The position numbers and the translations under genes are program-made. DNA of 64,000 nt from an uncultured Smithella sp. Lineage in GTDB: Bacteria > Desulfobacterota > Syntrophia > Syntrophales > Smithellaceae. Each line of letters opens with the position of its first letter. Position 1 is the first letter of the stretch. Below, piece after piece: positions 41,187 through 59,035 of the stretch. The stretch covers positions 4,550-68,549 of the forward strand of contig CAYUDM010000008.1 of NCBI GenBank assembly GCA_964443625.1. Reading direction: 5' to 3'. The notes below the pieces were generated by a model. The model worked only from the letters and a program-made list of their open reading frames with translations. It was not told the origin of the DNA and searched no databases.

Positions 41187-42026
41187 TTATAACTCCATAC
41201 ATTGACCGCCATCGATGTTGATCGCTTGGCCGGTCATATATTTTGACGCATCCGACGCCAGGAAAGCCACCAGGTCGCCCGCTTCGGAAGGCGCGCCGAT
41301 GTAGCCCAGCGGGATCGTCTTGCACATTTCCTTTTCGCGCTCCTCAACCGTTGTGCCAAAGAAGGATGCCTCCAGGCCGAAGCGCCACTTTTCCAGATCG
41401 GTGGCGATCTGCCCCGGACAGATGGCGTTTACCCTTATGCCGTTTCCGCCCAGTTCCTTGGCCATCGTTTTGGTCAGCATGATCACCCCCGCCTTCGCCA
41501 CCGCATAGGCGCTGTTGAAAAGCGGCGGAACTTTTCCGGCCCGGGATGCCGTATTGATGATGACGGCGGGCTTGCCCATCATCAAAGGGATGACGGCTCT
41601 TGAGATGCGGAAGACGGAAAACAGGTTCACATCGATGGTTCTGATCCAGGCCGCCTCGTCATATCCCAAAACTGTATTGGGCACGCCGAAAGACGCGCCC
41701 GCGTTATTGCACAGAATGTCGATGCGGTCGAAGGTCGCTTTGATGGTTTCCACCATGGCGCCGATGGCCTGATTGTCCGTCACGTCCACGGTCACGGCCA
41801 GAGTTTTTACGCCATAGGTCTTGGCAAGCTCCGCGGCGATGGCTTCCATTTCCCCGCTGGTGGCGGATTTCAGGGATTCGCCCGGAACCGGCGGTTGGCC
41901 CAGATCGGCAATCACGATGTTGCATCCGTTTGCGGCCAGTTTTTCGGCAATGGCGTAGCCGATGCCGGTTTTTTTGCCGGCCCCTGTCACGATGGCTGTT
42001 TTTCCTTTCAAATCACTATAAATCAT
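41187..42026 (-). CDS. short-chain dehydrogenase/reductase (likely NAD-dependent)
   Basis: [23 protein letters not shown]; start overlaps the xsc stop, RBS GAAGGAGG. Confidence 0.92.
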
Positions 42027-43779
42027 CTGCTCCTCCTTCATCATACCAACGACGATAGTCCAGGTGCGCGTACTTGGGAAGCATGCGCGTCGGCAGCGCG
42101 AGCGCATCCTTGCGGAAAGGCGGCGCCAGCTGTTTTCCGTCTACCAGGAATTCCAGCACGGTGGGTTTGCGGCTCTTGATGCAGGCAAGGAATGCCTCCC
42201 GGATATCCTGCGGACGGCTGACCTGCATGCTGTTGGCCCCCATAGCTTTCGCGACCGGCACAAAACTTTCAGGATTCGGAATATCCACGCCGACGAAGCG
42301 GTTATTGTAGAAATCGACCTGGTTTTTGGCCTCCGCGCCCCACCACATATTGCGGAAGACGCAGGCGATCACGGGCAGATTGTGCTCCACGGCCGTGCTG
42401 ACTTCGTGCAGGCTCATTCCCCAGGCGCCGTCACCGATGATGGCGACAACCGGCGACTTGGGCTTGGCAATCTGCGCGCCGAGCGCCGCCGGATAGGCAA
42501 AGCCCGTGTTGCCGAAGGTGAGCGCCGCGATATGCCGGCGGGGATGGTTGAACTTCAGATAGCTGTTGGCTGTTGAGGAAACATTGCCGATATCGGTGGT
42601 CACGATGGCGTCATCTGGAAGCGCCCGTGCGATTTCCAGCAAAACCCGGCGCGGATTCATGGGGTTTCCGTCCACCATCGCCAGATCGACAAGTTCCTTT
42701 TCCCATTTCTTCTTCTCTCGGGCCACCGCCGTCAGCCTCTTTTCATCCGGCTTGCGTTTACCGTCTTTCGCTTTCAGGCGCTTCAGAATTTCCGCGGAGG
42801 CTTCCTTGGCATCCCCGATAATGCCCACGGAAATGGGGTGCGTGCGGGCGATGTGCTTGGGATTGATATCGACCTGGATGATCTTCGCGTTTTCGGGGAA
42901 GTAGTTGATGTCATATTGCGGCAAGGTGCCGAAAACGGACAGCCTGGTGCCGATGGCCAGCATGACGTCGGCTTTCGCCAGCGTCTTCATGGCCGCCTTG
43001 GACCCCATGTAGCCGATGGGCCCGACAGAAAGGGGATGGTTGCCGTAAAACGCATCGTTGTGCAGGTAGGTCACCGCCACCGGCGCCGTCAGATGTTCGG
43101 CGATCGCTTTGACAATGTCCAGCGCGTCGGCGTCCACCACGCCCCGTCCCGAAACAATGACCGGATTTTTCGCCTGCGACAAAAGCTCGGCCGCGCGATC
43201 AAGCTGCTCAATGGCGCCGCAGCCGCGCGCATCCACCCGGTATTGTGACGGCTGCAGAATTCTTTCTTCCAGTTCACCGTAGAAATAGTCGCGGGGAATG
43301 TCATAGAGCACAGCGCCGCGGTCGGCATAGGCGATGCGGAAAGCCGTTCTCAAACAATCAGCCGCCCTCTTCGGATGAGGCACTCGGACAACGGCTTTGG
43401 TGATGGCCCGGAAAACCGACATCTGGTCGCATTCCTGAAAACCGTCCCAGCCGATCGTCGGCGTTCCGGCCGAAGGCGAGAGAATGACCAGCGGCGTATG
43501 CCCCATATTGGCGGCGGCGACCGACGTGACCATATTGGTGATGCCGGGACCGTTTTGCCCGGTGACGACGCCGCAACGCCCCGATACGCGGCAGTAGGCG
43601 TCTTCCATATGCGCGGCGCTCTGTTCGTGGCGGACGGGAATGAATTTTATTCCCGCCGTCGGAAAGAGATCCAGCATGTCCATAAAGGCCGAGCCGACGA
43701 TGCCGCAGACATGATCCACGCCTTCGGCCAGCAGGGTCTCCACAATCGCTTCACTGGGCGTCATTTTGATTTTTTTCAT
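42016..43779 (-). CDS. xsc: sulfoacetaldehyde acetyltransferase
   Basis: [84 protein letters not shown]. Confidence 0.93.
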
Positions 43780-43850: not shown

Positions 43851-45056
43851 TCACGACTGATTTTGCAAAACCGACCCTGTCTCCCGGGCAATCATCTTCT
43901 CCTCGTCTGTCGGCACGACAAAAACCTTGATCTTCGATTCCGGCGCGGAGATGTCTCTTTCCGGCAAACCGGCCTTGTTTTGATCTTCATCCAGAACAAT
44001 CCCCAACCATGCCAGAAAGGCGCAGATCCGGCCACGCATCGGCGGCGAATTTTCACCGACTCCCGCCGTGAACGCCAGCGCGTCGAGTCCGCCTGCGGCC
44101 GGAATCATAGATCCCACGCCGCGCGCCACGCTGTAGGCGAAAACATTGAGTGCAAGCGTCGCTCTTTCGTTGCCTCGTGCCGCTTCCTTTTCCAAATCCC
44201 GGAAGTCCGGAGAGATGCCGGAAATTCCGAAAACACCGCTTTGCCGGTTCAGAATATCGAGGGCTCCGTCAATCGAACAATGCTCTTTTGCCATCATGTA
44301 GGACACGACCGCCGGGTCAATATCTCCCGAGCGTGTGCCCATGACCAGCCCCGAAAGGGGTGTGAACCCCATCGACGTATCCAGAGACTTGCCTGCCGCC
44401 ACGGCGCAGAGGCTCGATCCCGCCCCGAGGTGACAGGTGATGATTCGGGGCGCATGGATTTTGCCTTGCAGAAGTTCGGCGACGCGGACCGCCACGTAGC
44501 GGTGCGAGGTGCCGTGAAAACCGTAGCGGCGGACAGCATCCTCGCTGTAGTAACGGTAAGGAATCGCGTAGGTATAGGCATAAGGCGGCATAGTGGAATG
44601 GAAGGCCGTATCGAAGACCGCAACTTGCGGCACGCCGGGCATCAATTTCGTGCAGACATCGATGCCCATCAGATTCGGCGGATTGTGCAGTGGCGCAAGC
44701 GCTTTTGTTTTTTCCAGGATTGTCCGGACAGGACCATCGACGATAACGGATGACCGAAACTGTTCACCACCGTGAACGACCCGGTGTCCGACACCGGCAA
44801 TTTCACGGATGTCGGACAAGACACCGTGCTTGGGATCGGCCAGAAAAGACAACAGAACAAGGACCGCCCGCGAATGATCGGGGAGGTCCACGACGGTTTC
44901 CCCGGCTTGCCCCCCGACTGACTCATAGCGAAACCGCGCATCGGAAAGTCCGATCCGGTCGGCCTGACCCGACGCCAGAACCCGGCCTGTTTCCATCTCA
45001 AAGAGTTTGTATTTGAGTGATGAGCTGCCGCAATTTAAAACCAGAATCTTCATCAT
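43851..45056 (-). CDS. ackA: acetate kinase
   Basis: ILVLNCGSSSLKY, GHRVVHGG, APLHNP, FDTAFH, YGFHGTSH, HLGAGSS, FTAGVGEN, PTDEE. Confidence 0.97.
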   Translation of the reverse strand: MMKILVLNCGSSSLKYKLFEMETGRVLASGQADRIGLSDARFRYESVGGQAGETVVDLPDHSRAVLVLLSFLADPKHGVLSDIREIAGVGHRVVHGGEQFRSSVIVDGPVRTILEKTKALAPLHNPPNLMGIDVCTKLMPGVPQVAVFDTAFHSTMPPYAYTYAIPYRYYSEDAVRRYGFHGTSHRYVAVRVAELLQGKIHAPRIITCHLGAGSSLCAVAAGKSLDTSMGFTPLSGLVMGTRSGDIDPAVVSYMMAKEHCSIDGALDILNRQSGVFGISGISPDFRDLEKEAARGNERATLALNVFAYSVARGVGSMIPAAGGLDALAFTAGVGENSPPMRGRICAFLAWLGIVLDEDQNKAGLPERDISAPESKIKVFVVPTDEEKMIARETGSVLQNQS

Positions 45057-45063
45057 GAAAGCC

Positions 45064-46764
45064 TCAATCCAGATCTTCTTTCTCCGGCCACAAATACATG
45101 CCGCCTTCCAGGGTGCGGACATCCGGAAAACCCGCCGCATCCAACACGCGTTGAGCGGAAAACCCTCTCAGCCCGAGAAGACAGACACAGACAATCTTTT
45201 TGTCTTTGGGCAGTTCAGAGAGTCTCGAACGCAGTTCATCAAGCGGAATATTAATCACTTTGGGACTGCTGATGTGAGCGCGCCGAAATTCCCGATCCGA
45301 TCGAACGTCCACCATCAAGACATCGTCGTCATGATCCAGAAGCTCTCTGGCCGCGAGCGCCGTTATCGGTTTCATCAAGCCGGCTGTGACATTTTCCGCA
45401 ACATGAAGCGCCGTGATGAAAACATCCACCGCCTGCGAAAAAGGCGGCGCATAGGCCATATCCAGAGAAGCGATATCCTGAATGGTCGCGCCAAGCCGTA
45501 TGGCGGTCGCGGCCACATCGATACGGCGGACGATATCGCCCTTCCCCACGGCCTGCATTCCCAGAAGCTTGTGAGTGCCGTTTTCCAGGACCAGTTTCAA
45601 TCCCAGAATCTGGCTGTCGGGGTAATAATGGGCCTTATCAAATCCGCATACGGACAGCGCAAAGGCATCGAGGCCCTCTCGCTTTGCCTGCATCTCCGTA
45701 ACACCGGTGGCGCCGACAGAGTAATCAAAGGCCTTGCAGATGAAGGTGCCCTGCACACCGGGAAACTCCGAAGGAATGCCGCAGATGTTGTCGGCAATCA
45801 CCCTGCCGTGTTTGTTGGCGGTGGAGCCCAGCGGAATGTAACAAGGCTTGCCCGTCATGATATGCGTGCTTTCCACCAGGTCTCCGCCGGCATAAATATC
45901 CGGATCGCCGGTCTGCAAACGGGCATTGACCCGAAGCGCGCGAGTTTCGCCCAGGTCCAAACCCGCGGCCACAGCCATCTCCGTATTGGGCTGCAAACCG
46001 GCGGCGACAAGAACAAGGTCGGCGGAATATTCGTTCGTTCGGGTCATAACGCGGCCGATCTTTCCGCTTTGTCCCGCAAAGGAGAGGATCTCAGCGTTCA
46101 ATTCACATTCCACGAGGTTTTCAAAGAAATGCTCCCGGATCATCGCCGAGATTTCATAGTCGAGCATTCCCGGAAAAAGCTGCCCTTCACGTTCCAGAAG
46201 CGTCACGTCCCATTTTCTGGCGCGCAGGGCTTCTGCCATCTCCACTCCGATAAAGCCTCCACCGACGATCACGGCGGCGCCGGGCTTGCGCTTTTCGATC
46301 TCGCTCGCCAGGGCATTGGCATCTTCCATGCGGGTCAGATGGTATATCCCTTTTAAATCCGATCCCGGAATCGGAGGCATCTTAGGCCTTGCGCCCATCG
46401 CGAGCACCAGAGCATCATATTCAAATGAGAGCAATTCCCCTGTGACCATGTTCGTCGCACCGACCGTGCGATGTTTCCGGTCGATGGAGAGAACCCTGAT
46501 CTGCGTGCAAATGGTCGTATCCTTGAGATCCTTAAAATACTGGACGTCGCGAATCCGGCCATACGTGGTTTTCATCAGATCGTCCCGCTCGCGGATTTTT
46601 CCTTCCAGATAGTACGGCATGCCGCAGGCGGCATAGGATATAAACCGGCTCTGGTCCAAAATGGTAACCGCATAGTCGGGACGCAGGCGTTTGATGCGCG
46701 AGGCGGCTTTCGCGCCGCAGGCGGATGCTCCGATGATCAGAATTTGCTTTGAATCATTCATCAT
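45064..46764 (-). CDS. CoA-disulfide/persulfide reductase-rhodanese flavoprotein (CoADR-RHD/Npsr-like)
   Basis: IIGASACG FAD site, SYAACGMPY redox Cys, GGGFIGVE NADH site, YAPPF, C-terminal rhodanese DVRS...CLLGLRG. Confidence 0.88.
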   Translation of the reverse strand: MMNDSKQILIIGASACGAKAASRIKRLRPDYAVTILDQSRFISYAACGMPYYLEGKIRERDDLMKTTYGRIRDVQYFKDLKDTTICTQIRVLSIDRKHRTVGATNMVTGELLSFEYDALVLAMGARPKMPPIPGSDLKGIYHLTRMEDANALASEIEKRKPGAAVIVGGGFIGVEMAEALRARKWDVTLLEREGQLFPGMLDYEISAMIREHFFENLVECELNAEILSFAGQSGKIGRVMTRTNEYSADLVLVAAGLQPNTEMAVAAGLDLGETRALRVNARLQTGDPDIYAGGDLVESTHIMTGKPCYIPLGSTANKHGRVIADNICGIPSEFPGVQGTFICKAFDYSVGATGVTEMQAKREGLDAFALSVCGFDKAHYYPDSQILGLKLVLENGTHKLLGMQAVGKGDIVRRIDVAATAIRLGATIQDIASLDMAYAPPFSQAVDVFITALHVAENVTAGLMKPITALAARELLDHDDDVLMVDVRSDREFRRAHISSPKVINIPLDELRSRLSELPKDKKIVCVCLLGLRGFSAQRVLDAAGFPDVRTLEGGMYLWPEKEDLD

Positions 46765-47945
46765 TTTATGCCTTTGTTTTCGCACCTGACGTTGTCTACA
46801 TCCTTGCGGACGGCGACAAAAATCCGGTACAGTAAGGTCAGAATCAAAAGTCCCACCGCCCAGATGCCCAGTGTGATGGCGATTTCCGGTCCCGTCGGGT
46901 GATATTCGGAAATGGCTTCCAGCGGCGATGGAATAAACCCGGTAATGACCAGACCCAGGCCCTTTTCAATCCAGAGCGAGACAAAGACGGCGACGCAGGC
47001 CAGAGCCAGCCACCCTTCATTATGCCGGATCTTTGGAATAACCAGCATGAGCAGCGCAGCAAACGCCAGCAAGGCAGAGGCCCACATCCAGGGGACCAGG
47101 TTGTCATAGCCGTGCAGGCCGGCAAACAAATAGATGAAGTGAGCCTCATGCTCCGGCAGACCGCTGTAAAAGACCGTGAAGATTTCCACCCCGACGAAAA
47201 AGATACTGATGGCCAGCGCGTAGGCGACGATTTTCGATAACGTCCGGATCGCTTTTTGACCCGCGTCGAAACGGCCGAGATACTTCAGAATCAGGCAAAT
47301 CAGAATCAATAGCGCCGGGCCCGAGGCAAACGCGGAGGCCAGAAACCGAGGCGCCATGATGGCGGTGAGCCAGAAGCTCCGCCCCGGAAGGCCTGCATAG
47401 ATGAAGGCTGTTACCGTATGGATGCTGATCGCCCAGGGAATCGACAGGTAGATGATCGGCTTGACCCAGGAAGGCGGCGGGATTTCTTTTTTTGTACAGG
47501 ACAAAACAACCCAGCCGGTGATCAGATTGATCAACAAATACCCCGACAGGACCACCATATCCCAAAAAAGAATGGATGCCGGCTGCGGATGCAGAAGCAC
47601 GTTCATCACACGGGAGGGCTGGCCCAGATCAACAACAACAAACAGGATGCACATCACAACGGCGGCGACGGCGAGAAACTCGCCCAGGACGGTGATCCTG
47701 CCGAATGCCTTGTAGTCGTGCAGGTAGTAGGGCAAAACCAGCATCACGGCCGAGGCGGCCACGCCGACCAGAAAGGTGAACTGGGCGATGTAGAGTCCCC
47801 AGGAAACATCCCGGCTCATCCCCGTGATTCCCAGGCCGTAGTCCAGCTGCTGAAGATAAAAGAAGAAACCGGTTGCGGCAAGTCCCAGCAGAAAGGCGAT
47901 CCAGACCCAGTAAACGCGGCTGCCTTTTAAGGCTTTTTCCAGCAT
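46761..47945 (-). CDS. dsrP: DsrP (NrfD/PsrC family membrane subunit)
   Basis: GITGMSRDVSWGLYIAQFTFLVGVAASA, DLGQP, SILFWD, SIHTVTAF, PRFLASAF. Confidence 0.95.
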   Translation of the reverse strand: MLEKALKGSRVYWVWIAFLLGLAATGFFFYLQQLDYGLGITGMSRDVSWGLYIAQFTFLVGVAASAVMLVLPYYLHDYKAFGRITVLGEFLAVAAVVMCILFVVVDLGQPSRVMNVLLHPQPASILFWDMVVLSGYLLINLITGWVVLSCTKKEIPPPSWVKPIIYLSIPWAISIHTVTAFIYAGLPGRSFWLTAIMAPRFLASAFASGPALLILICLILKYLGRFDAGQKAIRTLSKIVAYALAISIFFVGVEIFTVFYSGLPEHEAHFIYLFAGLHGYDNLVPWMWASALLAFAALLMLVIPKIRHNEGWLALACVAVFVSLWIEKGLGLVITGFIPSPLEAISEYHPTGPEIAITLGIWAVGLLILTLLYRIFVAVRKDVDNVRCENKGIK

Positions 47946-47952
47946 GGCATCC

Positions 47953-48729
47953 TCACAGGATATAATAGATCTGCGGCGCGGTGCCTAAGTGGGGCCGCCT
48001 TCGCAGGTTAAAACGTGTTTCCAGAAGTTTGCGGATTTCCGAGCTCGGATCCTCCAGATCACCGAACACGATGGCTTTGTGTTTGCAAGCCAGGACACAG
48101 GCCGGAAGCTGTCCTTTGGCCAGCCGCTCTTCACAGAAGTTGCACTTCTCCACGACGCCTCTGGCGCGTGTCGGAAAGTCCGGATGGAGCTTCGCGATAA
48201 ACGGGCGCGGGTCGCGGAAATTCATGCTCCGCGCGCCGTAGGGACAGGCGGCCATGCAAAGCCGGCAGCCGATGCAGCGGTGGTAATCCATCATGACGAT
48301 GCCGTCTTGCCGTTTAAACGTCGCCTGCGTCGGGCAGACCCGGACACAGGGAGGATTTTCGCACTGATTGCACAAAACGGGAATTCTGAGATTCTGAATC
48401 GCTTTTCCCTGGTAGGGGTGATCCTCCGCCGGAAAAACGGAAGAAAAAGGCTCGGTCCAGATCCACTTGACTTCATCTTTGGGATTGCTGAAGTCGGGGA
48501 CATTATGCACCGCGTGGCAGGCGGTGATGCAGTCGGTGCAGTCGGTGCTGCATCGGGACATATCAATCGCCATGGCCCAACGCTTGGCCGAAAGCGAGTT
48601 GACGGACAAAGAAGTCTGCCCCGGAATCGGGAAGTTTTCGCCCGCCCGGGCCGGAAGAAGGGGGAACGTGATCAACGTCAAGGCGGACGCTCCGGCAATT
48701 TTCAAAAAGTCTCTGCGGTTCGTCGTCAT
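47953..48729 (-). CDS. dsrO: DsrO, Tat-exported 4Fe-4S protein
   Basis: RRDFLK Tat motif, CxxCxxxC clusters, CIGCRLCMAACP, VEKCNFC. Confidence 0.95.
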   Translation of the reverse strand: MTTNRRDFLKIAGASALTLITFPLLPARAGENFPIPGQTSLSVNSLSAKRWAMAIDMSRCSTDCTDCITACHAVHNVPDFSNPKDEVKWIWTEPFSSVFPAEDHPYQGKAIQNLRIPVLCNQCENPPCVRVCPTQATFKRQDGIVMMDYHRCIGCRLCMAACPYGARSMNFRDPRPFIAKLHPDFPTRARGVVEKCNFCEERLAKGQLPACVLACKHKAIVFGDLEDPSSEIRKLLETRFNLRRRPHLGTAPQIYYIL

Positions 48730-49136
48730 TTTTTCACCTCTTCCGGAACAAGATGACAGCTATAGCAGGTGGGTTTGGCGCCCACGTAATCATGACAGCG
48801 GTCGCAGAATTGTTCCTTGTTGCTGTGGCAGCGAAGGCAGGAATGGGTCAGGCTTTTTTCGAACTTGCGGCCGTCTTTCGCGGTGTACTGGCGTTTGCCT
48901 TCTCGAACGGCCTCATCGCGCCAGCCCTTGAGCATCTTCATATGATCCGTGCGCATCACGGCCGTATCTTCGACGCATTTTTTGTCCTGCATTGACTGAA
49001 TAACGGGCGTATCCAGACTGAGCACAGGCGCCGGCGCTGATTGAATCGCGCCGTACCAGAAGGGAAAAGTAGCCCCGAGAAGGAAGATTCCCAAACCCAG
49101 AAGAATTAAACCCCATTTATATTGTTTCATCTTCAC
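48726..49136 (-). CDS. dsrJ: DsrJ triheme cytochrome c
   Basis: N-terminal TM, CVE...MRTDHM, CLRCH, CDRCH, CYSCH. Confidence 0.95.
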   Translation of the reverse strand: MKMKQYKWGLILLGLGIFLLGATFPFWYGAIQSAPAPVLSLDTPVIQSMQDKKCVEDTAVMRTDHMKMLKGWRDEAVREGKRQYTAKDGRKFEKSLTHSCLRCHSNKEQFCDRCHDYVGAKPTCYSCHLVPEEVKK

Positions 49137-49160: not shown

Positions 49161-49291
49161 AGCTATGAGCTATGAGCTGCGAGCTGCACCCCATTCACCC
49201 TCCCCCTGCCCCTCCCATCAAGGGAGGGGAGGTGATTCAATTATTCGTGCTATTCCCTCTCCCCACGTGGGAGAGGGTCAGGATGAGGGGG
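49161..49291. repeat. heptamer array plus an inverted pair of CCCTC(T)CCC-N5-GGGAG(A)GGG REP-like hairpins
   Basis: agctatg x2, agctgcg, agctgca (49161-49188); unit A 49189-49230; unit B 49253-49291 in the opposite orientation. Confidence 0.8.
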
Positions 49292-50888
49292 CTGATATCT
49301 CCTCGCCTCTCAAATCCGTCGTCCTTTCCTTCTCGCCTCTCATCACCAGGGCATTGCCGACCAGTTCATGAACGCCCATGACCGAGACGCCCGGCACCCA
49401 GTAGTCCATGAGCGTCGAAAGCGTCGCCCGATCGATGGCGCAGATGCAGCCCAGCCGGTTGACGCTGTGCTTTTTCACGACGTCACGCACGGCCATGGCT
49501 CTGGGCATCCCGCCACGCATCCGCATTTCCAGATTCTCATCGTTGCCCAATCCCGCGCCCGCGCCGCAGCAGAAGGTTTTTTCGCGGATCGTGTCTTCCG
49601 CCATTTCATAAAAATTCCGGCAAGTGTTTTCAATGATGTATCGCGGCTCTTCAAGCAGGCCCATGGCTCGCGCCGGGTTGCATGAATCATGAAACGTCAG
49701 TCTGACATGATTGTTACGCCGCGGGTCGAGTTTTAATTTGCCGTTCCGGATCAGGTCGGCTGTGAACTCGACGATATGCACCATTTTGGTGGAGCGCGCA
49801 TTTTCAAACCGCGTGCCGGTAATCGGCGAAAGCGGTTCGGAAAGGAAATCCGCCGGCCCGTTCATCGTATCCATGTATTGATGGATCACCCGCCACATGT
49901 GCCCGCATTCGCCGCCCAGAATCCATTTGACGCCCAGGCGTTTGGCTTCGGCGTAAATCTTGGCGTTGAGCCTTTTGATCATCTCATGCGAGGTAAAAAG
50001 GCCGAAGTTGCCGCCTTCCGAGGCATACGTGCTGAAGGTATAATTGAGGCCGATTTCATGGAAGAGCATCAGGTAGCCCATGCAGGTGTATGTGCCGGGA
50101 TCGGCGAAATAATCGGCCGACGGCGTGACAAACAAGATATCCGCGCCTTTTTTGTTGATCGGAACGTCCACGCGAACACCGGTGCTCTCTTCGATGTCGT
50201 CGGCCAGAAATTCCAGCATGTCCTTCATGCCGCCGGGCTGAATGCCCAGATGGTTGCCGGTCCGGAAACAGTTGGCTGCGGGTTCGAGTACCCAGTTGAT
50301 GTTACATCCCACCAGATTTAAAAGCTCGCGGCCGATCATGGTAATTTCCGCCTGGTCGATGCCGTAGGGGCAGAAAACAGAGCAGCGGCGGCATTCCGTG
50401 CACTGATAAAAATAGTAAAACCATTCCTTGAGAACATCCTCGGTCAGATCGCGCGCGCCGGCTAATGTTCCGAAGCATCGTCCCGCCGTCGTGAAATAGC
50501 GACGGTACACCGAGCGGATCAGCTCGGCGCGCAAGACCGGCATGTTTTTGGGATCGCCGGAACCGATATAGAAGTGACATTTGTCCGCGCAGGCGCCGCA
50601 ACGCACGCAGATATCCATAAACAGGCGGAAGGAGCGGTATTTTTCCAATCGTTCTTTCATGCCGTCCAGAATGATCTGTTTCCAGTTTTCCGGCAGCTTC
50701 CAGTCGGGATCGGTCGGCTGCCAGGCCCGCGGGTTGGGCATCTCCAGAGTCGTCACATTCTTTGCGGCGGCTGGGTAACTCCAGGTACCCGGACGGAAAT
50801 CAACGGGGGTTTTCATCCAGTCCGTTCCGGGAGGTGTATATTTGATATTGAGGAGTTCATCCGGTTTGGGAATCTTGGCAAAAGACAT
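49278..50888 (-). CDS. dsrK: DsrK (HdrD-like catalytic subunit)
   Basis: CVRCGACADKCH, CTECRRCSVFCPYGID, GGECGH, FHDSCN, CCGAGAG, CAIDRATL. Confidence 0.96.
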   Translation of the reverse strand: MSFAKIPKPDELLNIKYTPPGTDWMKTPVDFRPGTWSYPAAAKNVTTLEMPNPRAWQPTDPDWKLPENWKQIILDGMKERLEKYRSFRLFMDICVRCGACADKCHFYIGSGDPKNMPVLRAELIRSVYRRYFTTAGRCFGTLAGARDLTEDVLKEWFYYFYQCTECRRCSVFCPYGIDQAEITMIGRELLNLVGCNINWVLEPAANCFRTGNHLGIQPGGMKDMLEFLADDIEESTGVRVDVPINKKGADILFVTPSADYFADPGTYTCMGYLMLFHEIGLNYTFSTYASEGGNFGLFTSHEMIKRLNAKIYAEAKRLGVKWILGGECGHMWRVIHQYMDTMNGPADFLSEPLSPITGTRFENARSTKMVHIVEFTADLIRNGKLKLDPRRNNHVRLTFHDSCNPARAMGLLEEPRYIIENTCRNFYEMAEDTIREKTFCCGAGAGLGNDENLEMRMRGGMPRAMAVRDVVKKHSVNRLGCICAIDRATLSTLMDYWVPGVSVMGVHELVGNALVMRGEKERTTDLRGEEISAPSS

Positions 50889-50890
50889 GG

Positions 50891-51892
50891 CTACTCCTTC
50901 TCCACCGGCAGACCGGCCGCTTTCATTTTATCGCGGAATTCGTCTTCATATTCTTCATAGGTATGCACCTTCACGGGGCCGTTCCATGGATTGATGTGTC
51001 TTTGGCTGCGGTTGTTATTGATCATGTTGCGCGTGGGGCTCAAAAAGATGCCGCCCCAATGCATCAGTTTGCTCCACGGCAGCCAGACCATCAGCGTGAA
51101 GATCAAACATAAGTGCATATACAGGAAAGCGCCCGCTTCTTCGGGAACAACCGGCGTCAACGTCACCCAGCCGATCACCAGGGTTTTTACGGCATGCAGA
51201 TCGACGGCAAAGAAGTGCCTCATCATAAGTCCCGTTCCGGCAATTCCCGCAATCAAAAACAGGGCGAAATAATCGGTAAATAAAGAAATGTAACGCACCT
51301 GCGGCCCAACGACTCTTCGCAGGAGCAGAAAGGTCAATCCCGCCAGAAGCGCCGCGTCGCTTAAGTAAAGCGCCGGAGTGCCGATTTCCAGAAAACCGTC
51401 CAGCGAGGAAAGTCCGTTGATAAAAGGCGCGATGGGTTCCGTGAAAAAGCGCAGATGCCGAAGTGCTACGATAAGGAGCGATCCGTGAAACATCAGGCCG
51501 AAAAACCACAGCCATTTGGCGCTGCCGAACACCTGGCGACCATCGATCATCTGCACATCGGAATTACGAAAAAGCGACCGGAACAGGAAAATCTCGCCGG
51601 CCATTCTTCCGATAACACTCACCTTGCAGCAGGGATTTTCGAGCGGATTGTTTTGAATCCAGGGCAGGCTTTTTTGCTGGCCGCAGGTGGTCGGAATGCG
51701 GAAAGGAACCGGGGCCTTTGCCCATTTTACAACCCGGTACACAAAGCCGAACAGGAAAAGAACAAATACGGCATACGGGACAATCATCGCCAGAAGATAG
51801 CTTCCCGCAGGATTAGCCGAGATGGCCGCGGCCAGAAGGGCAATACCGAAAACCAGAATGAGGGGCAACAGTACCTTCATAAAGAATCTCAC
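50891..51892 (-). CDS. dsrM: DsrM (NarI-like diheme b membrane subunit)
   Basis: PVPFRIPTTCGQQKSLPWI, E.FLFRSLFRN, FHGSL...LRHLR, PWSKLMH...FLSPTRN. Confidence 0.96.
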   Translation of the reverse strand: MRFFMKVLLPLILVFGIALLAAAISANPAGSYLLAMIVPYAVFVLFLFGFVYRVVKWAKAPVPFRIPTTCGQQKSLPWIQNNPLENPCCKVSVIGRMAGEIFLFRSLFRNSDVQMIDGRQVFGSAKWLWFFGLMFHGSLLIVALRHLRFFTEPIAPFINGLSSLDGFLEIGTPALYLSDAALLAGLTFLLLRRVVGPQVRYISLFTDYFALFLIAGIAGTGLMMRHFFAVDLHAVKTLVIGWVTLTPVVPEEAGAFLYMHLCLIFTLMVWLPWSKLMHWGGIFLSPTRNMINNNRSQRHINPWNGPVKVHTYEEYEDEFRDKMKAAGLPVEKE

Positions 51893-53514
51893 TTATCCGA
51901 TAGGTCTTCCCACGACGGTTCTTCACCGAAGCGGATCATCGGTTTTTGCATGCCTTCGAGAGCATTGACGATCAACTCGACCAGTCCGCCGTAATGCAGG
52001 TTGCTTCGTGCTTCTGCGTCGTAATAGTGAATCAGATCACGGATCGCTCCCTTGCAGTTCGAGCAGGGGGCGCAGACGTATTTGGGCGTATCTTGCGGTT
52101 CGTTCTCAAAAGCTTTTAGAATCTGCAGAAACTTTTTGCGCGAGCTGACCAGGTTTCGCCAGTCGGTGAAATTATATCCCGACATGATGGCAAAGCCCGA
52201 TCCGCCGCCGCAGCAATAGTTATGAACGCCGTGCGGCGTCATTTCCCGGAAGCGCGGCGCGATTTTTCTTAAAATTCTTCTTTGCGGTTCGACAATGCCC
52301 ATTGAGCGCACGACATTGCAGGGATCATGCAGCGTGACGGGGAAATTGTTCTTCCGTGGATCGAATTTCAATCGGCCGCTCAGAACGATATTTTCCAGTG
52401 TGACCAGCGCCGACTCCCGCGGAATGTTCAGATCGCCCGTCAACAGCCGGTCGGCAATGACCGTCAGCGCCTTATGCGCGTGCCCGCACTCGCCGATCAC
52501 GATTTTTTTCACTTTGAGCCTGCGGGCAATGTCCGCATGTTTGACGGCAACGCGCGAGAATTGCACATCGTCGTACCACAGGCCGTAATTGACGGCATCA
52601 TAACCCACCGCTTCAGAAGACAAGGTCCACGAAAGGCCGGCCGCCTGGAAGAGAATCGCAAAAGCGCCTACGCTTTCCGGCCAGGCCAGCATTTCACCGG
52701 CATTGTGCAAAAGCAGAATATCCGCCCCTTCGACGTCCCAGGGAATCTCGACCGGATAGCCGGTAATTTCTTCCATCTCTTCCCTGATAAACTCAATGCT
52801 GTCTTTTGCCGCCGGAGGAGTCATCCCTGTTGAAGAACCGGACTTCAGATGCAAAACGGTACCCTTCTCATGGAGTTCTTTCGGAGCGATGCCCATTTCC
52901 TGCGAAAACAGTTTGCGGATTTCATGGTTGATCAGTCCGTTATCCACCCCGATGGGGCAGACCGAAGCGCAACGACGGCAAAGGGAGCAGCGGTAAGACA
53001 ACTCCGCCAAGCGCGCGATGGTTGTCCAGTTCAAATCGATATCGTAGCCCAGCCGGGCTGTAATTTTTCCGCCCGGTTTGAGATATTTTTTATAAATGCG
53101 GCGCAGGACTTCCGAACGAAAGACCGGCCGGTAAATCTCCTGACGTCCACTCATCTCAAAGACAGGACAAGCATCCGAACAGGTCTGGCATCGGGCGCAA
53201 TGCTCCATGGACAAAAGCAGAGGCTGCAAAAACGTCCAGTTGTTCTCTTTTTCGAAAAGCTTCTTCAGGCCGGAAAGGAAACGCAACACCAGTGCTTCCT
53301 CTTCCTCACGGCTGGCGGGCTTCGGAATGCCGATGGCGACGGTGTCATCAAGCGATGCTTCGATATTTTTTATTTTCTCGGCTTTGAGCGGCGCAGGCCC
53401 CCTGCCATTGAAATCTTCATACGGCGGAGGCAGAGGTGCAAGGTCTCCAGGCTCGATGCGGCTCAAGCGATCGGTCGCAGCGGCAATGTCGGACGGTTTC
53501 AGGAGGGGTTTCAT
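51889..53514 (-). CDS. second DsrK-like Fe-S/CCG protein (DsrK2)
   Basis: CARCQTCSDACP, CSLCRRCASVCP, GECGH, HDPCN, CCGGGSG, CAPCSNC. Confidence 0.85.
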   Translation of the reverse strand: MKPLLKPSDIAAATDRLSRIEPGDLAPLPPPYEDFNGRGPAPLKAEKIKNIEASLDDTVAIGIPKPASREEEEALVLRFLSGLKKLFEKENNWTFLQPLLLSMEHCARCQTCSDACPVFEMSGRQEIYRPVFRSEVLRRIYKKYLKPGGKITARLGYDIDLNWTTIARLAELSYRCSLCRRCASVCPIGVDNGLINHEIRKLFSQEMGIAPKELHEKGTVLHLKSGSSTGMTPPAAKDSIEFIREEMEEITGYPVEIPWDVEGADILLLHNAGEMLAWPESVGAFAILFQAAGLSWTLSSEAVGYDAVNYGLWYDDVQFSRVAVKHADIARRLKVKKIVIGECGHAHKALTVIADRLLTGDLNIPRESALVTLENIVLSGRLKFDPRKNNFPVTLHDPCNVVRSMGIVEPQRRILRKIAPRFREMTPHGVHNYCCGGGSGFAIMSGYNFTDWRNLVSSRKKFLQILKAFENEPQDTPKYVCAPCSNCKGAIRDLIHYYDAEARSNLHYGGLVELIVNALEGMQKPMIRFGEEPSWEDLSDK

Positions 53515-54467
53515 TTGACCTCCCTGGGCGTTGACGATGCAATGTCCTTCCAGGATTTACGCCCGTCCGCTTCGATGTGTTTGGCCTGCCACGTCGGACG
53601 ATAATTCAAATTCGTCAGCACAGCCGCCTCAATGTCATTGCCGCGCCGACTGGGCCTGTCGTCCCACTTGACCTGATGGTAAAGAAAATATTTCATAAAC
53701 ATGTGTGACATGTGGGTCAGCGGAATATAGGCGGCCAGCAGCGATCCGAGAAGAATCGTCAGCACACCGTAAAGCGTTTGCCCCGGCTGGTAACCGGACG
53801 CAAAGCTTCCCGCTGTCAAAAGGCCTGTGACGTAGGACGAGGCCGCATCAAAGGAAGGATCGGCCAGGGCCGCGGTTAGCAGTCCGCAGACAAAAAATGC
53901 CAGAAACAAGACGAGGTTGATATAATCCGCAGGCGTGGCATAGAGCTTCATCTCCCGGTCGACCAGGCGCGTAAACAGCAGGCCGAGCGAGCCGAAAAAG
54001 CCCGCGGCAAGTCCGATCCAGCCGCAGATGAAAGCAAGTCCGCCAAGCGCTGTTTTCAGAACGCTGCCTTCGGCAAAGATCGAAGGACCCCATACGGTCA
54101 AGCCGGCCGAAATCAGAAACAGGGCAAAGGTTGCCAGCACCAGATACAGCCCCAGGTGAAACGGAAAAGAAACCCACCAGAGTTTTTTGTTTTCTTTCCA
54201 AAGGCCTCTCAAAAGCAAGATTTCCGGCGCCATATATTTGAACTCATTTGCCCGGGATGTTTCATGAGAAGACTTCCACCAGTCCGGCTCTTCCAGGTAG
54301 GAGCCCCCGTAGGCCGCCTTGGCGGCCGTCTCATGCTGAACCGGATAAACCTCCCAACGAACATGCACAGGAAGCTTTAACTGTCTTACGACACGCCAGG
54401 CAACAGCCGCCGCAAAGACGATCAGGCAAACGTAGGTAAAAATATAAAATCCCATAAACAACACCAC
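53511..54467 (-). CDS. second DsrM-like NarI-family membrane protein (DsrM2)
   Basis: PVHVRWEVYPVQHE...GGSYLEE..WW, FPFHLG, YIPLTHMSHMF. Confidence 0.85.
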   Translation of the reverse strand: MVLFMGFYIFTYVCLIVFAAAVAWRVVRQLKLPVHVRWEVYPVQHETAAKAAYGGSYLEEPDWWKSSHETSRANEFKYMAPEILLLRGLWKENKKLWWVSFPFHLGLYLVLATFALFLISAGLTVWGPSIFAEGSVLKTALGGLAFICGWIGLAAGFFGSLGLLFTRLVDREMKLYATPADYINLVLFLAFFVCGLLTAALADPSFDAASSYVTGLLTAGSFASGYQPGQTLYGVLTILLGSLLAAYIPLTHMSHMFMKYFLYHQVKWDDRPSRRGNDIEAAVLTNLNYRPTWQAKHIEADGRKSWKDIASSTPREVK

Positions 54468-54586: not shown

Positions 54587-54710
54587 ATTTCTTTTCCAAA
54601 TCAAGATGATACCGCGGCGGCAAGGAGGAGGCGCCGAAGGCGTATTATTAATACGTCGAGGACGCCGACGACGCTGCCAACAAAGGTAGCGCTTGATTTC
54701 GGAAAGAAAT
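54587..54710. repeat. 124-bp palindromic MITE/REP-like element
   Basis: 19-bp terminal inverted repeats (17/19 match: atttcttttccaaatcaag and cttgatttcggaaagaaat) with a nested internal stem ggcgtatta-t-taatacgtc. Confidence 0.7.
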
Positions 54711-55030
54711 CACACGCAGCCGGTCGGCTTGGATAATCCCGCCAGTTTGCAGGCCCCTTTGGCCGGACCGGTTGGAAAAAGCTCATAGAGTTTTTTCATA
54801 TCGATTTTCAAATCTTTGCAAATCTTTCGGATCATGGGCGCAATGCCGAACTGCTGGAAGTAATCCCGCAGATAGTTGATCACGCGCCAGTGCTCTTCCG
54901 TCAGGTCCCCCTCGATGTCTTCAGCGGACGCGTAAGCATTGGCAAATTCTTCGTTCCATTGGTCGAGATCCTGCAGGAACCCGTCTTCATCCACTTCATA
55001 CGTTTTACCGGCTAATTCGATTTGCGGCAT
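54710..55030 (-). CDS. dsrC: DsrC sulfur carrier
   Basis: VDEDGFL, LTEEHW, ELFPTGPAKGACKLAGLSKPTGCV with both C-terminal Cys (Cx10C). Confidence 0.97.
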   Translation of the reverse strand: MPQIELAGKTYEVDEDGFLQDLDQWNEEFANAYASAEDIEGDLTEEHWRVINYLRDYFQQFGIAPMIRKICKDLKIDMKKLYELFPTGPAKGACKLAGLSKPTGCV

Positions 55031-55064: not shown

Positions 55065-56528
55065 TCATAATGATCTCCTGCTCTTGCCTGAAGTGCTCAC
55101 CGGAAGATCCCGGTTTGACAAAGCAGACTGATTTGTTTTCGATCGGCGGTAGGCATCAGCGGCGCTTACGAGCGCCCCGGCCCACTCGGGGGTTCCCAGG
55201 GCGTGCAGATGCGTAAAGCCCGCCAGAATATTATTTTTGCTCATGCCGTCGCGGCCGTTACCGATGCCTGTTCCGCGCAGAACATAGTAAGCGGTTTGAA
55301 TATCTTCATCGCCCGATGAAAAAATTCGGCAGTAATGAAACTCATGGCCGGTTAACGTCTGGCCGATGGGGAAGAAAGGGTTCTCCCGATCCACAACCAC
55401 GGTGGTGTAGCCGTGACCCTGAGGCTTATTTTCCAGGCGGAATGTTACGGGCAAGGCGCCGGCCATTGGATAGCGTTTGTCGCCGATCACCAGGGTTTCG
55501 CCCAGATAGATAAATCCTCCGCATTCGGCGTAAATCGGCAACCCGGCTTCCGCTGCGTCTTTGAGGGAACGACGAAAGGCTTCGTTTGCGGCCAGCTTCT
55601 CCGCCTGCGTTTCAGGAAATCCCCCGCCGATGTACAAGGCATCGACCGGCGGCAGGGCTTTTTCGGAAAGCGCGCTGATTTCGACGATCTTCGCCCCGCG
55701 GTCGGACAGGGCGAGAATATTGTCCGAATAATAAAATTGAAACGCCGCGTCTTTGAGGACACCGATTCGAACAGGTTCCGAAACCGTACGGCGCGAGCGG
55801 GGCGAATCGGGAAACGCGTCGATCGTCCAGGCCGGCGCGCCTTTGGCGACCTCAAGCAATCCGGCAACGTCCAGATAATCCTGGGCAATGGACTGCGCTT
55901 TTAGAAGCGCCTGCTCCATGCCGTCGTGTTCCTCGGGGGGAATCAGGCCCAGATGGCGCTGCATAAAAGGCAGGTCCGGCAGACGCGGCACAACCCCGAA
56001 AACAGGAAGGCCTGTTGATTCTTCGATGGCCCGGCGGATCACGGACGCATGGCGATTGCCGCTCACCCGGCTTAAGATCACGCCTTGAACGTTGACCGCG
56101 GAATCGAGATGAAGGCAACCCAGCACCATGGCCGCCGCCGTCCGCGTGACCTTGTCGCAGTCGACCACCAGGATCACAGGGGCAGCTAGCAGCTTGGCCA
56201 GTTCGGCCGTGCTGAAATCTCCCGTGGCGTTCACGCCGTCAAATAGACCGCGATTGCCTTCAATGAGCGAAATATCCGCGTGCGCACAGTGGCGCGCAAA
56301 AGACCGGGCCACCTGATCGGCGCCCATGAGGTATGTGTCCAGGTTGGAACAGGGACCGGATGCCGCCCGGGACAACCAGGCGGCGTCAATATAATCCGGT
56401 CCCTTTTTGAAAGGGGCGATTGTCAGACCCAGACGGCGCCAGGCAGCAATCAAGGCCACCGAGAGGGTTGTCTTTCCCGCTCCGCCTCGCAGGGCGGCCA
56501 TCACTAAACGCGGACATGATCGATTCAT
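55065..56528 (-). CDS. dsrN: DsrN siroheme amidase (cobyrinate a,c-diamide synthase family)
   Basis: GGAGKT, FKKGPDYID, IEGNRGLFDG, ERHLGL-like QRHLGL, AECGG, GHEFHY; position directly after dsrD. Confidence 0.92.
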   Translation of the reverse strand: MNRSCPRLVMAALRGGAGKTTLSVALIAAWRRLGLTIAPFKKGPDYIDAAWLSRAASGPCSNLDTYLMGADQVARSFARHCAHADISLIEGNRGLFDGVNATGDFSTAELAKLLAAPVILVVDCDKVTRTAAAMVLGCLHLDSAVNVQGVILSRVSGNRHASVIRRAIEESTGLPVFGVVPRLPDLPFMQRHLGLIPPEEHDGMEQALLKAQSIAQDYLDVAGLLEVAKGAPAWTIDAFPDSPRSRRTVSEPVRIGVLKDAAFQFYYSDNILALSDRGAKIVEISALSEKALPPVDALYIGGGFPETQAEKLAANEAFRRSLKDAAEAGLPIYAECGGFIYLGETLVIGDKRYPMAGALPVTFRLENKPQGHGYTTVVVDRENPFFPIGQTLTGHEFHYCRIFSSGDEDIQTAYYVLRGTGIGNGRDGMSKNNILAGFTHLHALGTPEWAGALVSAADAYRRSKTNQSALSNRDLPVSTSGKSRRSL

Positions 56529-56555: not shown

Positions 56556-56780
56556 TTACTCTTTCGGAAAATACTCGGCCAGGATCAGATAGGTCGAACT
56601 TCCGCTGGACCAGTATTTCAGAACTTCTTCATCGAGAAGTTCTTTCACAACATTCTGAATGGCATGGCGATCCTCACCCGGAAGCCACTTCGTGACGTCC
56701 CGGATGTAGAACATTTTCTTGTCGCCCTTTGATTTTTCCCGAAACAACTCTGTGATTTTCGCTTTCAGATCGTCGCTCAT
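56556..56780 (-). CDS. dsrD: DsrD
   Basis: 74 aa, MFYIRD...YWSSGSSTY; 4 nt downstream of dsrB. Confidence 0.92.
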   Translation of the reverse strand: MSDDLKAKITELFREKSKGDKKMFYIRDVTKWLPGEDRHAIQNVVKELLDEEVLKYWSSGSSTYLILAEYFPKE

Positions 56781-56784
56781 TTTT

Positions 56785-57846
56785 TTACCTCCACTTAAAC
56801 TGCGCGGATGTCCGGAAAGTTTCCGTGGCCAGATCAAAGTCATCGATATGCTGGTCGGTAAAGGGAATTCCCGTCAGGGAGAAGAAGCGTTCCCAGCCGA
56901 CGCGCTCGATCCATTCGCCCACGCGTTCATGCTTTTTTGCGTGGCTTGCGTACACTTCAATGATGTTCTTGACGGCGTCGACCACTTCCGGCCAGCGCGG
57001 CGGATTGTTGGGCAGAAACGGAATCGCCAGTTTGGAAAACATTGGCTTGCTGCGGGCGTTGGAAACTTTTCCGCCCACCCAGATGGAAATTCCGTCGTTG
57101 TCCGGATCGGCAATCGGCATCGCCGGACAAACGGTGTAGCAGTTGCCGCAGTACATGCATTTCTCGTCATTGACGGTCAGCGTTTTATTTTTCATATCGC
57201 CGCGGATGGCGCCCGTCGGACACGAGGCCACCGTTGAGGGGATTTCACAGACATTGGGCACGCGGGAGTTATCGGTCTTTGGCACTGTCCGGTGAATGCC
57301 CAGAATGGCGATGTCCGAGCAATGCACCGCGCCGCACATGTTCAGACAGCAGGCGAGCGCAATCCGGACATGCGCGGGAAGTTTGGCTTCCACGAAGTGT
57401 TCGTAAATTTCGTCCATCAAGGCTTTGACCGGGCCGGAGGCGTCGGTGGCGGGCGTGTGGCAGTGGACCCAGCCTTGCGTGTGGACGATGTTGGAAATGG
57501 AGTGCCCTGTGCCGCCCACGGGATAGCCGCGTTTTGTCAACTCGGCAATCAGCGGTTCGAGTTGTTCCTTGTCGTCCAGCAGAAATTCGATGTTGTGGCG
57601 GCTGGTGAATCGCAGAAAGCCTTCGCAGTATTTTTCCGCGATGTCGCAGATCTCGCGGATGTGATCCGTCGAAACCAGGCGTGGAGAGCCGGCGCGCACG
57701 CTGTAGAGCGCTTCTCCCGATTCGCCCACGTGCATCAGGACGCCGGGTTTTACAATCTCATGATACATCCATTTGCCGTAATTTCGCTCGATCACGGGCG
57801 GCAGCATGGTCTTATAGTTGGGGGGTCCGATATCCGTTTTTGCCAT
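56785..57846 (-). CDS. dsrB: dissimilatory sulfite reductase beta subunit
   Basis: [50 protein letters not shown]. Confidence 0.98.
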
Positions 57847-57847
57847 T

Positions 57848-59035
57848 TTACTTTTCCTCCTTCTTGAGATCTTCGGGCCAGAAGAAGACATAGGGGTTGG
57901 TTCTGGGCGCTTTGACCATCTGCGGCACCGCGGGCAGGCCGACCGCTTTCAAAAAGACCCGCATCCCCAGGCGCTGAATCAGCTCACCCAGACGTTCACG
58001 CGATTTTCCGAACTCATCCCACCAATCCTGAATGCGTTCGATCAGATCTTTCAATTCATCATAAGGCGGTTCGAGTTTCATAAACGGCACAACCACCCAG
58101 GACAGAAGCGCCCCTTTCACAATCGGCGCTTTGCCGCCCACGAGAATGGACGCGCCGGTTTCTTTCCCCGGCCGCAGGGCTTTGGGCATGACGTTGATGC
58201 AGTGCATGCAGCGTGTGCAGTCTTCGTCGTAGATTTTGAGTTCTTTGCCGTTCCATTCCATGCAGCGTGTCGGGCACAGATCACAGACTTCCTTTTGGAT
58301 GTTGATGTTTTCCGCGTAGGCTAGCACTTCATCGGCATTGATCCGGATGGCGTCTTTCCAGGTGCCGATAATCGACAAATCGGATCGGGCAATCGATGCG
58401 ACACAATCATTGGCGCAGGCGGAAATCTTGATTTTGAATTTGTAGGGGAACATCGGGCGATGCATCTGATCCTGATAGGTCATGGTGAGATTGTAGCAAA
58501 GATCGAGGCTGTCGACACAGGCCCACTCGCAGCGCGCAGGGCCGACGCAGGCACTCGGCGTGCGCAGCGCCGAACCGGAACCGCCCAGATCGAAGCCGGC
58601 GTCCGACAGATCGTTGAAACAGGGCTGGAGATGCTCCGTGGTGGTTCCCAACAAAATGGCATCCCCTGTCGACCCGTGCATATTGGTGAGCCCGCTTCCA
58701 TGTTTGTCCCATATCTCGCACAGCTTGCGCAACGCGTCTGTTTTGTAAAACCATCCCGCGGGATGATTAACCCGCATGGTATGGAACGCCTGGACATTCG
58801 GGAATAGATCGGGGCGATCAGAATAGCGGCCGATGACGCCGGAACCGTAGCCCTTGACGCCGACTATGCCTCCATGTTTCCAGTGGCCGATTTTATCCTT
58901 GTAGGATAGTTCCAGCTGATGCAAAAGATCTTTGGCCATCGGATTCTTTCGGGCAGCCTCTTTCATGTCTTTGACGAAGCTCGGCCATTGGCCTTTTTCC
59001 AGTTCGTCTAATAAGGGAGTATCGAATTGCCCCAT
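57848..59035 (-). CDS. dsrA: dissimilatory sulfite reductase alpha subunit
   Basis: [59 protein letters not shown]. Confidence 0.98.

Follow-up and report, generated by a model that had tools for sequence, protein, structure and literature searches.

Why does a gene for a rhodanese-bearing flavoprotein stand between a sulfite respiration operon and a sulfonate degradation module? The question is raised by a stretch of 64,000 nucleotides (hereafter, the window) from an uncultured Smithella sp. (contig CAYUDM010000008.1 of assembly GCA_964443625.1), wherein the gene P0001 lies directly behind dsrP and ahead of ackA and xsc. An earlier sequence-only reading had assigned its product to the Npsr/CoADR-rhodanese flavoproteins (persulfide reductases and coenzyme A-disulfide reductases) and had suggested several roles, including that of a substitute for the Dsr protein DsrL. 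We propose that the enzyme is probably an NADH-specific, FAD- and coenzyme A (CoA)-dependent reductase of persulfides and polysulfide that belongs to the Archaeoglobus branch of Npsr enzymes and is auxiliary to co-expressed sulfite respiration, a proposal based on its sequence, a structural model and analogy with solved relatives. The link to dsrMKJOP is conserved but optional, and the enzyme looks like a helper of sulfite respiration rather than a core step.

Family, fold and catalytic residues

The translation carries a Pyr_redox_2 domain at residues 7-299 (PF07992, E 2.3e-54), a Pyr_redox_dim domain at residues 343-446 (PF02852, E 9.7e-17) and a C-terminal rhodanese domain (Table 1). The motifs picked out by the sequence-only reading, SYAACG, GGGFIGVE...LLERE and CLLGLRG, are all located in it. 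The protein thus combines the two-Rossmann fold and dimerisation domain, the single flavin-side cysteine and the rhodanese Cys loop that define the CoADR-rhodanese/Npsr group, and it also has the TTYGxxR lid loop and the Glu closing the second NAD strand that mark the branch resembling the Archaeoglobus fulgidus enzyme, AfNpsr. In an alignment of 34 homologues, Cys47, Glu191, Cys528 and Arg533 are invariant. The TTYG lid loop is mostly retained in aligned homologues of at least 51% identity and is substituted in the group at 38-46%.

The best full-length sequence match in the PDB is AfNpsr (6pfz, E 2e-149), followed by Bacillus anthracis CoADR-RHD, Enterococcus faecalis CoAPR and Shewanella Npsr. 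An AlphaFold2 model produced with the 34 homologues as input reached a pLDDT (predicted local distance difference test) of 92, and Foldseek aligned it with 6pfz at 43% identity, TM scores of 0.93/0.97 and a root-mean-square deviation of 1.5 Å, compared to 32-35% identity for other rhodanese-bearing enzymes. The domain matches, the PDB sequence and fold matches and the residue-level alignment all support the NADH-type Npsr/CoADR-rhodanese architecture that had been proposed.

AfNpsr acts on the persulfides of Cys, glutathione (GSH) and CoA and on polysulfide, with kcat/Km of about 1e4 M-1 s-1; it uses NADH only, and it does not reduce CoA-disulfide, glutathione disulfide (GSSG) or cystine (PMC7969121). 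Its lid loop closes over the bound CoA and has been blamed for the rejection of disulfides, and its Glu183 has been proposed to exclude NADPH (PMC7969121). Because AfNpsr is the closest characterised relative, because its lid loop, Glu and Cys residues have counterparts here, and because it does not reduce CoA-disulfide, the protein is best called, from sequence and model, an Npsr-type persulfide reductase and not a CoA-disulfide reductase.

Position behind dsrP and its conservation

Direct reading of the minus strand downward from 46764 gives ATGATGAAT, where the flavoprotein start and the dsrP stop share an ATGA. An alternative ATG at 46761-46759 likewise overlaps the dsrP stop (TGATG), and the orthologues have one Met fewer at the N-terminus, so the gene overlaps dsrP under either start. 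At its other end, 7 nt separate the stop TGA (45066-45064) from the ackA ATG (45056-45054), and GAGG lies five bases upstream of this ATG. Both junctions are as the sequence-only reading had described them, and so are the neighbours dsrP and ackA, which, together with xsc, score above their NCBIfam cut-offs. A promoter and terminator search at both junctions found none, and neither junction is roomy enough for one.

A single long minus-strand gene string runs from dsrA to the xsc module, including dsrC, with the flavoprotein gene between dsrP and ackA. From this layout, co-transcription with both dsrMKJOP (upstream) and ackA-xsc (downstream) is predicted for the gene, and translational coupling to them is probable. 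Such co-transcription would cause the enzyme to be made whenever sulfonate-derived sulfite is respired to sulfide. A foreign origin of the gene was considered on the basis of base composition and was rejected, since its GC content (0.53-0.56) shows no anomaly compared to the flanks (0.54-0.60).

We surveyed 116 genomes of the family, counting as orthologues proteins of at least 68% identity; these are kin genomes, and the counts are descriptive only. An orthologue is present in 14 of the 116, and in 10 genomes besides the window's own it comes right after dsrP, with which it shares contig and strand (G086, G099, G090, G077, G096, G078, G018, G030, G084 and G112). One further genome, G081, has a contig break between dsrP and the orthologue. 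The same order recurs in at least seven metagenome contigs (L088-L092 and L177/L178, and partly L094), and loci with dsrP and then this gene further include L001, L002, L006, L174 and L175. A position unique to this genome had been named beforehand as evidence that would overturn the sequence-only reading; with 10 further species genomes and at least seven metagenome contigs sharing it, the position is not unique.

In all of these recurrent loci the two genes either overlap or lie no more than about 80 nt apart. In nine of the nine other loci read, a count that leaves out L091, they are joined by an ATGA-type overlap or separated by no more than 9 nt, and coupling to dsrP is retained among orthologues that have diverged to 67-76% identity. 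The place behind dsrP is thereby conserved across species, as is expected for an accessory dsrMKJOP cistron. Co-occurrence with dsrP and xsc, a check put forward with the sequence-only reading, is also seen: DsrP is encoded in all 14 orthologue-bearing genomes, compared to 40 of the 116 overall, and Xsc in 12 of the 14. In one of these loci (L174:3114-4975, from G018), the gene follows dsrP and is succeeded by DJ-1/PfpI and metallo-beta-lactamase-fold genes in place of ackA-xsc; xsc was not found in the G018 genome.

The host genome is 100% complete by marker genes; a search for aprA gave nothing above noise there, and pta was not found. Given these two absences, the organism looks like a sulfite/organosulfonate respirer rather than a sulfate respirer, and acetyl phosphate derived from Xsc looks to be converted to acetate and ATP through AckA alone. 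In a 2026 comparative study, roughly half of the sister genus UBA8904 was reported to have dsrAB, whereas Smithella proper had none (PMC13685792). DsrP is encoded by 27 of the 46 genomes of this genus, which fits that report.

Table 1. Coordinates of the flavoprotein gene, its motifs and its neighbours in the window
Feature	Position	Strand	Remarks
Npsr-type CoADR-rhodanese flavoprotein gene (P0001)	45064..46764	minus	566 aa, stop-free translation
Rhodanese domain, residues 473-559	45088..45348	minus	PF00581, E 4.9e-14
Rhodanese active-site loop CLLGLRG, residues 528-534	45163-45183; Cys528 codon 45181-45183	minus	Cys528 aligns with AfNpsr Cys519
NAD(H)-binding Rossmann fingerprint GGGFIGVE (168-175)...LLERE (189-193), Glu191	46186..46263	minus	Glu191 aligns with AfNpsr Glu183
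Lid loop TTYGRIR, residues 66-72	46549..46569	minus	aligns with AfNpsr residues 60-66, TTYGAVR
Cys47 codon, flavin-side redox cysteine in SYAACG (residues 43-48)	46624..46626	minus	aligns with AfNpsr Cys42
ATGA overlap, dsrP stop/flavoprotein start	46761..46764	minus	read from the sequence; flavoprotein ATG 46764-46762, dsrP TGA 46763-46761
xsc, sulfoacetaldehyde acetyltransferase, source of sulfite	42016..43779	minus	TIGR03457, 853 bits (cut-off 676.4)
ackA	43851..45056	minus	TIGR00016, 458.7 bits (cut-off 293.4)
dsrP, last gene of dsrMKJOP	46761..47945	minus	NCBIfam NF045798 DsrP equivalog, 484.8 bits (cut-off 350)
dsrO	47953-48729	minus	
dsrJ	48726-49136	minus	
dsrK	49278-50888	minus	
dsrM	50891-51892	minus	
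Second dsrM/K-like pair	53511-54467 and 51889-53514	minus	
dsrC	54710..55030	minus	PF04358, 130 bits; both C-terminal cysteines; translation ends ...CKLAGLSKPTGCV
dsrN	55065-56528	minus	
dsrD	about 56556-56843	minus	
dsrB	56785-57891	minus	
dsrA	57848-59035	minus	

Beyond xsc, the same minus-strand string continues with genes for a short-chain dehydrogenase/reductase (SDR), a thiamine diphosphate (ThDP) enzyme, a major facilitator superfamily (MFS) transporter, a Zn-dehydrogenase and a TetR regulator. The SDR open reading frame (ORF), if begun at its first ATG (42107), overlaps the 3′ end of xsc by 92 nt (window 42016-42107). Its Pfam match begins at residue 36, and the true start probably lies further downstream.

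Proposed function weighed against alternatives

By analogy with solved relatives, the surface-exposed Cys528 of the rhodanese domain would take up sulfane sulfur. This sulfur could come from polysulfide, from a low-molecular-weight persulfide (CoA-SSH, for example) or perhaps from thiosulfate, and any choice of the in vivo donor among them would be a guess. A tightly bound CoA may then ferry the sulfur to Cys47 beside the flavin, as in the swinging-CoA mechanism proposed from the Shewanella and Bacillus structures (PMC7969121, PMC9405070), whereupon NADH would reduce the mixed disulfide and H2S would be released. A likely auxiliary role is the clearing of reactive sulfane sulfur formed where a high flux brings sulfite, sulfide and thiols together. 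This might protect the CoA/thiol pool and regenerate NAD+ from the NADH of the sulfonate-pathway dehydrogenases. CoA-SSH is reported to inhibit acyl-CoA enzymes, and E. faecalis CoAPR clears the CoA-SSH that arises under sulfide stress (PMC9405070). It is by analogy, too, that we infer the substrates, the binding of CoA and the physiological role.

Several observations weigh against this proposal. Nineteen related genomes carry dsrP and xsc, with or without ackA, and no flavoprotein gene in between. In three of them (G003, G073 and G092) the interval between dsrP and xsc is empty and about 80-115 nt long, and in the other 16 (G102, G111, G074, G026, G101, G098, G071, G080, G075, G050, G097, G093, G012, G015, G008 and G100) it holds ackA alone; five of these cases, ackA-only or direct, were confirmed with tblastn. 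An interval holding both the flavoprotein gene and ackA, as in the window, is a third arrangement in the family, and the flavoprotein gene alone fills it in G078 and, on the side towards xsc, in G081, where dsrP is on another contig. No CoADR-rhodanese match at all was obtained at E<=1e-100 in several dsr-xsc genomes, the near-complete G097 and G098 among them, and in G071 and G080 an orthologue sits in an unrelated neighbourhood while dsrP-ackA-xsc is intact. The gene is not present wherever dsr-xsc occurs, as an obligate component would be, and it is dispensable for the dsr-xsc arrangement.

Relatives outside the clade add to these counterarguments. Ten gene contexts at 44-71% identity revealed no dsr linkage; the genes there are stand-alone and in housekeeping contexts. 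Likewise, dsrP was not within 1.5 kb of any of the 29 best matches from outside the family (39-45% identity, among 400 genomes of the phylum). Because these relatives stand alone, the function of the subfamily does not need Dsr and is a general one independent of it.

The stand-alone relatives also bear on the origin of the gene. In a FastTree phylogeny, whose deep branches are uncertain and include long outgroup rows, the dsrP-linked copies and a few stand-alone Smithellaceae copies form one clade (support 98), with sister clades at 62-71% identity. The contexts of these sister clades and of copies at 51-56% and 44-46% identity are all unrelated to sulfur metabolism, and no dsr linkage was found among about 145 loci at 34-41% identity, mostly from Bacillota. 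Since the relatives outside the clade stand alone, a widespread enzyme was apparently recruited by this clade into the dsr-xsc string. In the window's lineage, the gene was placed exactly at the seam of the dsr and xsc modules.

This seam looks different in another genus of the family. The dsrP-ackA spacers of three loci (L168:1261-1700, L169:1211-1669 and L170:1225-1595) are 370-460 nt long and share a conserved, strong promoter-like TTGACA-17-TACCAT; tblastn at E<=10 found no remnants of the flavoprotein gene in them. The promoter-like site suggests that dsr and xsc are separate units in that genus. There, ackA-xsc is predicted to be a transcription unit of its own, and in the window it is predicted to be fused to dsr through the flavoprotein gene.

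The window's own genome also encodes a second CoADR-rhodanese protein (38% identical and widespread in the family) and two rhodanese-less paralogues, and the dsrP-linked gene is an additional, specialised copy. The second CoADR-rhodanese gene, a housekeeping paralogue (G000:C9:60872-62557, L082), follows a gene for a SLAC1/TehA-type anion channel and precedes a peroxiredoxin gene seemingly split into two ORFs. One of the rhodanese-less paralogues, a CoADR/Nox-type gene outside the window (G000:C38:1462-2766, L084; 35% identity), has an in-frame TGA at the position of the catalytic cysteine (VAFAA*PMPYY compared to SYAACGMPYY), and from this reading frame its product is probably a selenocysteine enzyme. 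In two other genomes of the phylum (L207:1501-4567 and L215:1498-4630), a CoADR-rhodanese gene has a shorter paralogue of the CoADR type in tandem behind it.

How do other functions compare with persulfide reduction? A general CoA-disulfide reductase, engaged in thiol-redox housekeeping and left behind dsrP by an accident of operon fusion, is an unlikely identity for the protein. CoA-disulfide reductase equivalogs are indeed its best NCBIfam matches, but both scores are well under the cut-offs (TIGR03385, 405.6 of 578.8 bits; NF007123, 354.3 of 458 bits). The close sister clades consist of stand-alone genes in housekeeping contexts, and the gene sits exactly where two modules with separate promoters in other genera are joined; however, three other CoADR-type paralogues are already available in the genome, and the tight coupling to dsrP persists in orthologues at 67-76% identity. 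The nearest characterised enzyme does not act on CoA-disulfide, and the present protein retains the restrictive lid loop of that enzyme. The same loop, together with the rejection of CoA-disulfide, GSSG and cystine by AfNpsr (PMC7969121), speaks against generic CoA-disulfide reduction and against the earlier suggestion of coenzyme M (CoM)-disulfide reduction. We give very little credence to the latter idea, in which a sulfonate-bearing disulfide such as CoM-S-S-CoM would be reduced to prepare the xsc substrate, or to an NADH oxidase serving oxygen defence. The sulfonate module does adjoin the gene and AfNpsr does oxidise NADH in air, but enzymes of the AfNpsr type reject disulfides, most xsc modules of the family lack the gene, and the oxidase activity of AfNpsr is absent under anoxic assay (PMC7969121).

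Reduction of thiosulfate with NADH is closer to the proposed chemistry. Here the rhodanese cysteine would take the sulfane sulfur of thiosulfate, sulfite would be returned to DsrAB, and the persulfide would be reduced to H2S. Rhodanese domains are thiosulfate sulfurtransferases by definition, the gene is predicted to be co-expressed with the sulfite producer Xsc and the sulfite consumer Dsr, and a related flavoprotein, the Thermotoga maritima NAD(P)H polysulfide reductase, is reported to have a CoA-stimulated thiosulfate reductase activity (PMC9431562). However, thiosulfate use is unreported for the characterised rhodanese-bearing members in the cited literature, and no sequence feature discriminates among sulfane donors, which makes a thiosulfate role purely a matter of inference. 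We regard this role as improbable; the thiosulfate for it might be a leak product of DsrAB or might form from sulfite and persulfide.

A different set of ideas would have NADH electrons enter the Dsr pathway proper. DsrL is an iron-sulfur flavoprotein that serves as the NAD(P)H:acceptor oxidoreductase of dsr systems, and it has Cys clusters for [4Fe-4S] centres. The protein described here has 10 cysteines (residues 16, 47, 86, 220, 308, 328, 343, 373, 526 and 528), which are unclustered; no CxxCxxC motif is found among them and no Fe-S domain in the Pfam scan, and the fold is of the CoADR type. It consequently falls outside DsrL, and the suggestion of a DsrL stand-in is weakened by this point and by the 19 dsr-xsc genomes that lack the gene, several of them without any CoADR-rhodanese match. 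DsrL is not a regular member of reductive-type dsr sets (PMC10504309), so nothing is “missing” here. A related version, in which the enzyme reduces the DsrC trisulfide or persulfide, can draw on the coupling to dsrP, on dsrC in the same string, on the presence of Dsr in all orthologue-bearing genomes and on a CoADR-rhodanese-type gene in the dsr cluster of another lineage (PMC7306483). Nonetheless, DsrMKJOP itself is reported to be the established DsrC-trisulfide reductase (PMC10861901), and the 19 otherwise equivalent arrangements suggest that sulfite respiration proceeds normally without the gene. We give little credence to either version. Of the sequence-only reading as a whole, the family assignment and the position behind dsrP stand, and the DsrL and CoM-disulfide ideas are not supported.

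Comparison with known systems

An auxiliary persulfide reductase would shed light on an older puzzle. The discoverers of AfNpsr regarded a persulfide reductase in a sulfate reducer as puzzling (PMC7969121), and a bacterial branch whose gene is physically joined to dsrMKJOP and to a sulfonate pathway that generates sulfite places this puzzle in a testable frame. The enzyme may handle sulfane by-products of sulfite respiration, tying NADH to sulfide formation. The kind of enzyme is already known, and the locus is of value as a testable hint of a supporting role for Npsr-type enzymes in sulfite respiration.

We speculate further, though we consider it doubtful, that DsrMKJOP has a soluble sixth partner in Npsr-type reductases, recruited repeatedly and independently, both in Smithellaceae and, if one published gene table is followed, in other phyla. 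They would catalyse an overlooked NADH-linked side step in which sulfane sulfur leaking from DsrC/DsrAB, or thiosulfate, is reduced back into the main path. If this were true across phyla, a pathway that is commonly depicted as complete would gain an accessory step; otherwise, an ordinary detoxifying flavoprotein has landed at an operon seam. The gene table concerns the Firmicute Calderihabitans maritimus, whose dsr cluster includes a COG0446+COG0607 oxidoreductase, KKC1_RS04170, that was down-regulated together with all dsr genes (log2 -5.1) and whose function its authors do not discuss (PMC7306483). A large study of dsr synteny makes no mention of a CoADR-rhodanese-type gene in dsr clusters (PMC10504309).

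Judged by its COG description, KKC1_RS04170 resembles the Smithella protein in joining a CoADR-type enzyme to a rhodanese domain inside a dsr cluster (PMC7306483), but it belongs to a different phylum and lies between dsrC and dsrN. E. faecalis CoAPR (8a56; PMC9405070) shares the architecture at 32-33% identity, and its proven clearing of CoA-SSH is the model for the protective role proposed here; in contrast, its gene lies in a cst-like operon controlled by the persulfide sensor CstR and is not linked to respiration genes. Npsr from Shewanella loihica PV-4 (3nta) and B. anthracis CoADR-RHD (3icr) have the same two-domain fold and both cysteines, but only 34-35% identity and no lid loop; the CoA pocket of the Shewanella and Bacillus enzymes is more open (PMC7969121). 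Bacterial Npsr enzymes are also reported to lack the NADH oxidase activity and the strict NADH preference of AfNpsr (PMC7969121).

AfNpsr (NoxA-3; 6pfz) is the closest parallel. Its full-length architecture is the same, as are both cysteines (redox and rhodanese) and the Glu that selects NADH, and the two proteins share the TTYG lid loop, a feature otherwise particular to AfNpsr. The hosts are also alike, in that A. fulgidus, like the organism studied here, is a sulfite respirer that does not live by sulfur respiration. The Smithella protein differs in being bacterial and presumably mesophilic, and in its rhodanese loop (CLLGLRG compared to CAIGLRS). Whereas the genomic context of AfNpsr is not discussed in PMC7969121, the Smithella gene sits in a dsr-xsc string with its start overlapping dsrP.

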